This document shows, piece after piece, positions 15,938 through 16,430 of a stretch of DNA of 64,000 nt (its first letter is position 1; each line of letters begins with the position of its first letter). The stretch is from Escherichia coli (GTDB lineage: Bacteria; Pseudomonadota; Gammaproteobacteria; Enterobacterales; Enterobacteriaceae). The notes beneath the pieces were generated by a model, which made no database searches, had not been told where the DNA came from, and saw only the letters and a list, made by a program, of their open reading frames with translations. The translations under genes and the position numbers were made by a program. The stretch is from assembly GCF_030384885.1 (NCBI RefSeq), contig NZ_CP128613.1; one strand, 5' to 3'.

Positions 15938-16015
15938 TATCGAATCGTTATTATGTGCAGGTGATTCGGCAGTCTATATCAGTTGTTAAAAATGACAACT
16001 TTTCATTAACTGTTA

Positions 16016-16255
16016 TCAAACCATCACCAGCGATAACTCTTTGCCAAGCGCCTTAGCCGCAAGCTGGACGGCGTCGATTTTTGTCGCATGGTGCAAGTTA
16101 AATAAGCGAGTAATTTCCTGTTTAGGTTTGCCAATTCGCCTGGCTAACTCTTGCTGAGTGATTTCTGACTGTAAAAAAGCATTTAACAGCAATACCTTAG
16201 AGGCGACGCTCAAAGGCACTTCAATAAAGTGATCGTGACTATTTAATGGCGAAGT
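16016..16255 (-). pseudogene. hicB: 3' remnant of hicB antitoxin (HTH domain only); hicA and hicB 5' part absent
   Basis: ORF 16016-16219 encodes ...ITQQELARRIGKPKQEITRLFNLHHATKIDAVQLAAKALGKELSLVMV (HicB-type C-terminal HTH). The frame extends upstream only to TSPLNSHDHFIEVPL before an in-frame stop at 16256-16258; no RNase-H-like N-terminal domain and no hicA-like ORF in 16256-16430. Confidence 0.5.
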
Positions 16256-16430
16256 TTACCTCCGTGTGTAATGTGCTCGAAAATAGCACTAAATCGCCGC
16301 AACGGCAGAATGCAATGCAAAATCAGGAAGGAAGATTCCAGAATTTCTTTGCGCTAATTTGCAAAACTGAATAATAACCTCAAGAAACGATCGGCATCAT
16401 AGCGGCAAAAGGTCAGAAAAAGGTGGCGAG

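Follow-up and report, generated by a model that had tools for sequence, protein, structure and literature searches.

Within the 64,000-nucleotide stretch of Escherichia coli DNA analysed here (the window), the genes ydcR and yncJ enclose a spacer that takes up the whole of positions 15938-16430. On its left lies an intact ydcR (14531-15937, - strand, 468 aa), annotated as a PLP-dependent aminotransferase / GntR-type regulator, and on its right an intact yncJ (16431-16661, + strand, 76 aa, DUF2554), which is transcribed divergently from the hicAB promoter region. Between the two, on the - strand, a 67-codon open reading frame (16016-16219) begins with a GTG at 16219 and ends in a stop codon at 16016-16018; its frame stays open for 12 further codons upstream before it reaches a TAA at 16256-16258. 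The 78 codons at 16019-16252 are 100% identical in protein sequence to residues 61-138 of HicB (PDB 6hpb, 138 aa; E=4e-45), and the hicB remnant, comprising codons 61-138 and the stop, accordingly occupies 16016-16252 (- strand), an assignment that is based on protein identity, on Pfam and on a RefSeq pseudogene at the same coordinates. These codons specify part of the linker, the HTH_3 DNA-binding domain and the C-terminal strand through which HicB dimerises. In a Pfam scan the stub matched HTH_3 only (E=5e-8), whereas full-length K-12 HicB additionally matches HicB_lk_antitox (PF15919) over residues 3-67; this toxin-binding N-terminal domain is absent from the stub, codons 1-60 having been deleted.

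An earlier first-pass annotation of this DNA had described the 67-aa ORF as nothing but the C-terminal HTH of HicB, with an in-frame stop about 12 codons upstream and the RNase-H-like N-terminal domain missing, and each of these points is borne out by the data above. The same is true of its statement that no HicA ORF lies before yncJ: the three - strand frames of 16254-16430 contain no HicA-like product, and K-12 HicA (58 aa, PF07927) falls wholly within a segment that the window lacks. Re-analysis likewise recovered neither a full-length hicB nor a hicA in the interval, and intact HicB orthologues are 138 aa long rather than naturally ~80 aa. A chance ORF was ruled out as an explanation, since the remnant is syntenic between ydcR and yncJ, with the same neighbours and the same orientation as in K-12. 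Gene callers disagree about where the stub begins, giving versions of 67, 65 and 58 aa. The GTG is an internal Val codon (Val72) of the intact hicB gene, whose native start and ribosome-binding site have been lost, and the 20 nt upstream of it contain no AGGAGG-like Shine-Dalgarno sequence.

Window positions 15900-16450 were aligned to the corresponding regions of K-12 MG1655 (L002) and strain 13KWH46 (L003), a comparison with K-12 being what the first-pass annotation had proposed for defining the endpoints. Relative to K-12, the window has one unbroken gap of 445 bp (alignment columns 355-799), the flanks of which are colinear with K-12 at 96-98% identity. The junction, placed by the alignments and by a 50-mer shared between carriers, falls at window 16253/16254 with a microhomology of 1 bp (an ambiguous G), and the missing K-12 segment is L002 1855-2299. 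This segment holds hicB codons 1-60, the 45-bp spacer between hicA and hicB, all of hicA, and 44 bp upstream of the hicA start codon. Beyond the junction, 177 bp of yncJ-hicA intergenic DNA have been retained (16254-16430, - strand; colinear with L002 2300-2476 at 96-98% identity). The single gap thus agrees with the view that the locus is a decayed hicAB of which only the hicB HTH tail survives.

The two endpoints of the deletion form a 6-nt inverted match, GGTAAA at the deleted end (L002 1855-1860) and GTTTACC on the retained side (2300-2306; window 16254-16260), which might have favoured the deletion event or might be a coincidence. The fusion has also created a junction-spanning ORF of 42 codons on the + strand (16246-16374, ATG start), which is a product of the deletion, as the same ATG in K-12 meets a stop after 6 codons. 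We considered this 42-aa frame as a candidate gene and dismissed it: it has no obvious ribosome-binding site and is a by-product of the fusion, probably a meaningless one.

It is very likely, in our judgement, that the interval 15938-16430 is the pseudogene remnant of a chromosomal type II toxin-antitoxin operon, hicAB. As is usual for a pseudogene, the sequence is colinear with its intact orthologue save for one disabling lesion, and the native start and ribosome-binding site are gone. Compared with a functional HicAB system, the stub has the HTH DNA-binding domain and the orthologous ydcR-yncJ position, and it lacks the toxin-binding domain, an adjacent hicA and the P2/inverted-repeat operator. 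Nor does it look like a stand-alone Xre/Cro-type regulator of ~65-70 aa: HTH_3 is present, no ribosome-binding site is, and, unlike stand-alone HTH genes conserved across taxa, the short form occurs solely in genomes with one particular E. coli deletion.

Carriers were counted by megablast of a 50-base probe centred on the junction against 5426 complete E. coli genomes, a search in which only contiguous junctions match because neither half of the probe is long enough to seed megablast alone. The 445-bp deletion junction was found in 1092 of the 5426 genomes, and since this many complete genomes have the same junction, an assembly artefact could be ruled out. The K-12 segment that corresponds to the deleted 445 bp is present in 4256/5426, and by subtraction 78/5426 have neither. 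A different lesion, a frameshifting 22-bp deletion in hicA, is carried by 811 of the 4256 segment-bearing genomes. Expressed as shares, ~63% of the genomes are K-12-like (the segment kept and no 22-bp hicA deletion), ~15% have a frameshifted hicA, ~20% have the 445-bp deletion, and a few carry IS lesions. Junction carriers include UTI89, 536, ST131, APEC O1, ATCC 25922 and E2348/69, and the short allele is common in phylogroup-B2-type strains. In an exact-match scan of one genome per bacterial species (GTDB representatives), the junction was not found outside E. coli.

The locus has a long record in the databases. It appears in RefSeq as a hicB pseudogene, labelled "incomplete; missing N-terminus", for 2013C-4282, APEC O1, EC18 and others, and the coordinates of the pseudogene in 2013C-4282 equal window 16016-16252; that genome is 100% identical to the window over 3.55 kb around the locus. 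The B2-type version of the 67-aa ORF entered the databases with the CFT073 genome of 2002 (c1862) and is present in at least 547 contigs under the names "hypothetical protein c1862", "Cro/CI family transcriptional regulator" and "antitoxin HicB"; our literature search on c1862/CFT073 found nothing. The exact 67-aa sequence of the window occurs in 12 contigs, and the ydcR-yncJ interval is at least 99% identical to the window in 17 genomes. Proteins that cluster with the stub are either 138-aa HicB proteins or fragments from the same locus. The feature is therefore already known, having been annotated as a pseudogene in RefSeq and deposited as an ORF since 2002, and it is an ordinary allele, given that one fifth of complete E. 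coli genomes carry the deletion and that RefSeq annotates the pseudogene.

The lineage of the window stands out in the neighbouring DNA. The 3' part of rlhA/ydcP (16753-17950, 1.2 kb) has ~90% identity to every other sampled E. coli lineage, its neighbours being at 96-100%, and the 3.55-kb region as a whole is matched at 99% identity or more in 2/5426 complete genomes and in the 90-95% band in 5233. This suggests that the rlhA allele of this rare lineage is either deeply divergent or introgressed. The spacer between yncJ and rlhA (16662-16752) has a REP-like look and is very variable (86-95%).

The first-pass annotation had left two origins side by side, a locus that was deleted or one that was never fully acquired. 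The former stands, supported by the 445-bp gap with its colinear flanks. The latter fails, since the remnant begins in mid-gene, at codon 61 and exactly at the K-12 position, since the upstream yncJ-hicA intergenic DNA has been kept, and since Escherichia marmotae has a full-length HicB. In its strongest form, the failed alternative would make the short form ancestral or incompletely acquired, with K-12-type strains gaining hicA and the 5' half of hicB at a later time; it could draw on the frequent horizontal acquisition of toxin-antitoxin loci (PMC7167474) and on the commonness of the short allele in phylogroup-B2-type strains. Such an insertion would have had to complete a gene in frame at codon 61 and, at the same time, restore half of an inverted repeat, and the remnant protein is identical to the C-terminus of the intact gene. 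Full-length HicB is moreover found in E. marmotae and across Escherichia, and the junction in no GTDB species-representative genome, which together support deletion within E. coli as the direction of change. We give an ancestral short form next to no chance and regard it as already effectively refuted.

The gap was identical in all ten carriers that we fetched, and these represent three or more sequence backgrounds, 2-4% apart within and next to the remnant: the window / 2013C-4282 type, a B2 type (APEC O1, EC18, TUM14697, A21 and 22KM0354), and the SW4848 / E700025 / AST20 type. The same deletion recurring at a hotspot, instead of arising once and then spreading, would account for the presence of one junction on several backgrounds, and the inverted match GGTAAA / GTTTACC could be thought to favour a hairpin-mediated event. 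Against this, the direct microhomology is just 1 bp, and every sampled carrier has G at window 16428 and T at 16437, two linked SNPs a little to the right of the junction that occur in 0/5 sampled intact alleles; E. coli also recombines readily, so that one allele can cross backgrounds. We therefore hold repeated deletion to be very improbable, and the economical reading of the alleles would be that the deletion happened once and then spread by descent and homologous recombination.

The 445-bp deletion is not the only lesion of this operon. The 22-bp hicA deletion (seen in 13KWH46, L003 2088-2137, as the loss of K-12 L002 2113-2134) is a second, independent inactivation, located between two CGCA direct repeats; it frameshifts the toxin and leaves hicB intact. 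In strain WP7-S17-ESBL-04 an IS1A lies in hicA, with hicB intact and part of the K-12 segment kept. In strain K_EC180 the hicAB locus has been replaced: where it would adjoin yncJ there are IS91 copies, and the region retrieved for this strain contained no anchor from the ydcR side. In every lesion type, the toxin is disabled first or jointly with the neutralising domain of the antitoxin. The decay of chromosomal toxin-antitoxin loci by deletion and nonsense mutation is described as an established pattern in PMC7167474, citing Fiedoruk 2015 and Mine 2009.

What the deletion did to the control region can be read from the K-12 sequence together with reviews of the operon (PMC11594946, PMC10865869, PMC7167474), on which our statements about promoters and operator are based. 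According to these reviews, hicAB is served by two promoters. Upstream lies P1, constitutive in activity and subject to stimulation by CRP-Sxy; downstream lies P2, which is repressed by the binding of HicB to an inverted repeat, hicO, and whose transcript begins at the hicA ribosome-binding site. The sole inverted repeat near hicA in K-12 is GTAAACA-N4-TGTTTAC, 30-47 bp upstream of the gene. It is absent from the window, where one arm has been lost, and the deleted 44 bp also contain a TATACT hexamer, a candidate -10 element. Given the operon geometry set out in the reviews, the repeat is very probably hicO (PMC10865869, PMC11594946), and P2 has very probably been destroyed by the deletion. 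The surviving arm, GTTTAC (16254-16259), when read on the - strand, supplies the in-frame TAA (16256-16258) that closes the frame above the stub.

P1 would be expected to lie within the retained 177 bp (16254-16430), where it would now face the stub and ydcR. Our motif scans gave no further pointers to it: a search for CRP-S sites (TGCGA-N6-TCGCA, 3 mismatches allowed) yielded no excess of matches over shuffled sequence and no convincing site in the intergenic region, and a sigma-70 scan returned no promoter-like site upstream of the stub, its sole match lying between the hicB stop and ydcR (15998-15971, - strand). No known RNA was found by Rfam in the ydcR-yncJ interval; the sole Rfam family in the window is the RydC sRNA, a full-length match of 80 bits at 31903-31966 (+ strand).

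Constraint on the stub was assessed by comparing 10 short alleles with 5 intact ones (K-12, 13KWH46, O157:H7, EC1 and CB8671), a small sample that was chosen for diversity. Residues 77-138 are invariant in all five intact alleles, whereas the short alleles contain seven different replacements (P103H, K127N, K127E, A116V, K79N, G101S and M137I). A SNP-centred probe places P103H in ~1003 genomes, or ~92% of carriers if the replacement is confined to them. A nonsense codon, S89*, is present in 28 genomes, with RefSeq noting an "internal stop", and a secondary in-frame deletion of 144 bp, with a CCTTAG/TTAG repeat at its ends, has eliminated the greater part of the HTH in ~27 genomes, E2348/69 among them (642 minus 615, from coverage/identity bands). 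The 67-codon frame nevertheless remains open in ~95% of carriers (1092 junctions against ~55 with the nonsense codon or the secondary deletion).

The copy in the window differs from K-12 over the stub by 7 synonymous and 0 non-synonymous changes, which, taken alone, looks like constraint. At two of the seven sites, though, it is the K-12-like intact alleles that are derived (K-12 and O157, with 13KWH46 at one), an intact allele has the same base as the window at one further site, and other short alleles do at two; as only 2-4 of the seven can post-date the deletion, there are too few changes to argue for selection. The population data, by comparison, show a pattern that we read as relaxed constraint on short alleles relative to intact ones. 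Codon K127 (window 16052-16054) has been changed twice independently, to K127N in B2-type and to K127E in SW4848-type alleles; the window and every sampled intact allele retain K127, and the double change could be due to chance.

These observations also bear on the suggestion in the first-pass annotation that the locus leaves a possibly expressed orphan HTH fragment able to bind a hicAB-type operator. Stated in full, this would give the stub a function as an orphan HTH protein, with transcription starting at the retained P1 and translation at the internal GTG or at a TTG; its free DNA-binding-domain dimer would act on hicO-like operators, either those of incoming mobile hicAB loci or one at a chromosomal site, or it would alternatively modulate ydcR. 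The open frame in most carriers is what one would look for in such a protein, as are a complete HTH_3 domain and C-terminal dimerisation strand (PMC11594946), the retention of the upstream promoter region and the lack of amino-acid changes in the copy of the window; several pipelines also name the product a Cro/CI-type regulator. A translated stub could fold, as structural stability and a role in dimerisation are reported for the HicB HTH domain (going by the title of Manav 2019, as cited in PMC11594946). Initiation is the first difficulty, the GTG having no Shine-Dalgarno sequence and being an internal Val codon of a gene whose native start is lost. Binding is the second: the local operator-like repeat has lost one arm, the HicB-repressed promoter P2 has very probably been destroyed with it, and even full-length HicB binds DNA weakly (PMC11594946). 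The third is the fate of the HTH in other carriers, ~92% of which have P103H within it; replacements occur in short alleles only, the sampled intact alleles being invariant, and dozens of genomes, that of the well-studied E2348/69 among them, still carry derivatives with the nonsense codon or the deletion. The literature search on c1862, as noted above, added nothing in its favour. A working orphan HTH protein is thus unlikely, the earlier suggestion of expression and operator binding appears over-optimistic and weakly supported, and the best reading of the stub is that of a decaying pseudogene, not a working orphan regulator.

A more specific version, which we consider more doubtful still, would have a free dimer of the HicB DNA-binding domain, expressed from P1, exert an anti-addiction or cross-regulatory effect on the hicO of incoming phages or plasmids, or would have ydcR placed under P1. 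If it were true, the rare lineage of the window, with its wild-type HTH, would be the best candidate.

On the preferred reading of a decaying pseudogene, the history of the locus may be reconstructed as follows. The ancestor would have had the K-12-type arrangement, in which yncJ diverges from P1-P2/hicO-hicA-hicB-ydcR, and one 445-bp deletion changed it. Gone are the promoter-proximal 44 bp, with the probable -10 element of P2 and one arm of the operator-like repeat, as well as the hicA toxin gene and hicB codons 1-60, encoding the partial RNase-H-like domain that binds HicA. The toxin disappeared at the same time as the domain that neutralises it, for which reason the deletion would have been harmless to the cell and able to persist. 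P1 may still be active, in which case transcription would continue across the stub in the direction of ydcR, which the deletion brought 445 bp nearer; the stub would then probably be transcribed from the retained upstream promoter, with efficient translation unlikely and little or no protein made. The short allele would have arisen once within E. coli and have reached ~20% of complete genomes by inheritance and homologous recombination, the copy in the window representing a rare sub-lineage in which the stub still encodes wild-type amino acids while the allele is decaying further elsewhere.

The practical consequence is that the 67-aa ORF is better read as a hicB pseudogene than as the Cro/CI-type regulator that several older records name. 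Past annotation hygiene the locus has little importance, although the population tally illustrates how a chromosomal toxin-antitoxin locus can be lost without killing its host, and the junction offers an easy way to recognise B2-type and a few other E. coli lineages.

Set against known systems, the locus is closest to the K-12 hicAB operon (yncN/ydcQ; HicB structures 6hpb, 6hpc and 6u0i), with which it shares the ydcR-yncJ site, HicB residues 61-138 and the upstream 177 bp, and from which it differs in having no hicA, no HicB residues 1-60, no native start or ribosome-binding site, no P2-proximal 44 bp and only one operator arm. The 67-aa ORF of the ExPEC strains CFT073 (c1862) and UTI89 (B2-type) matches the locus in the 445-bp junction and in the 67-codon frame; P103H and K127N are found in the B2 version, the lineage of the window keeping the wild-type residues. 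With other decaying toxin-antitoxin loci of E. coli, as described for ccdO157 (Mine et al. 2009; Fiedoruk et al. 2015; reviewed in PMC7167474), it has in common the loss of a system at a conserved chromosomal site, by the shared routes of deletion, frameshift, nonsense mutation and IS insertion, with the toxin inactivated first or together with the antitoxin. It differs from decay of the ccdO157 type in that it concerns another toxin-antitoxin family, and in that here one event removed both the toxin and the neutralising domain and left the DNA-binding module behind.
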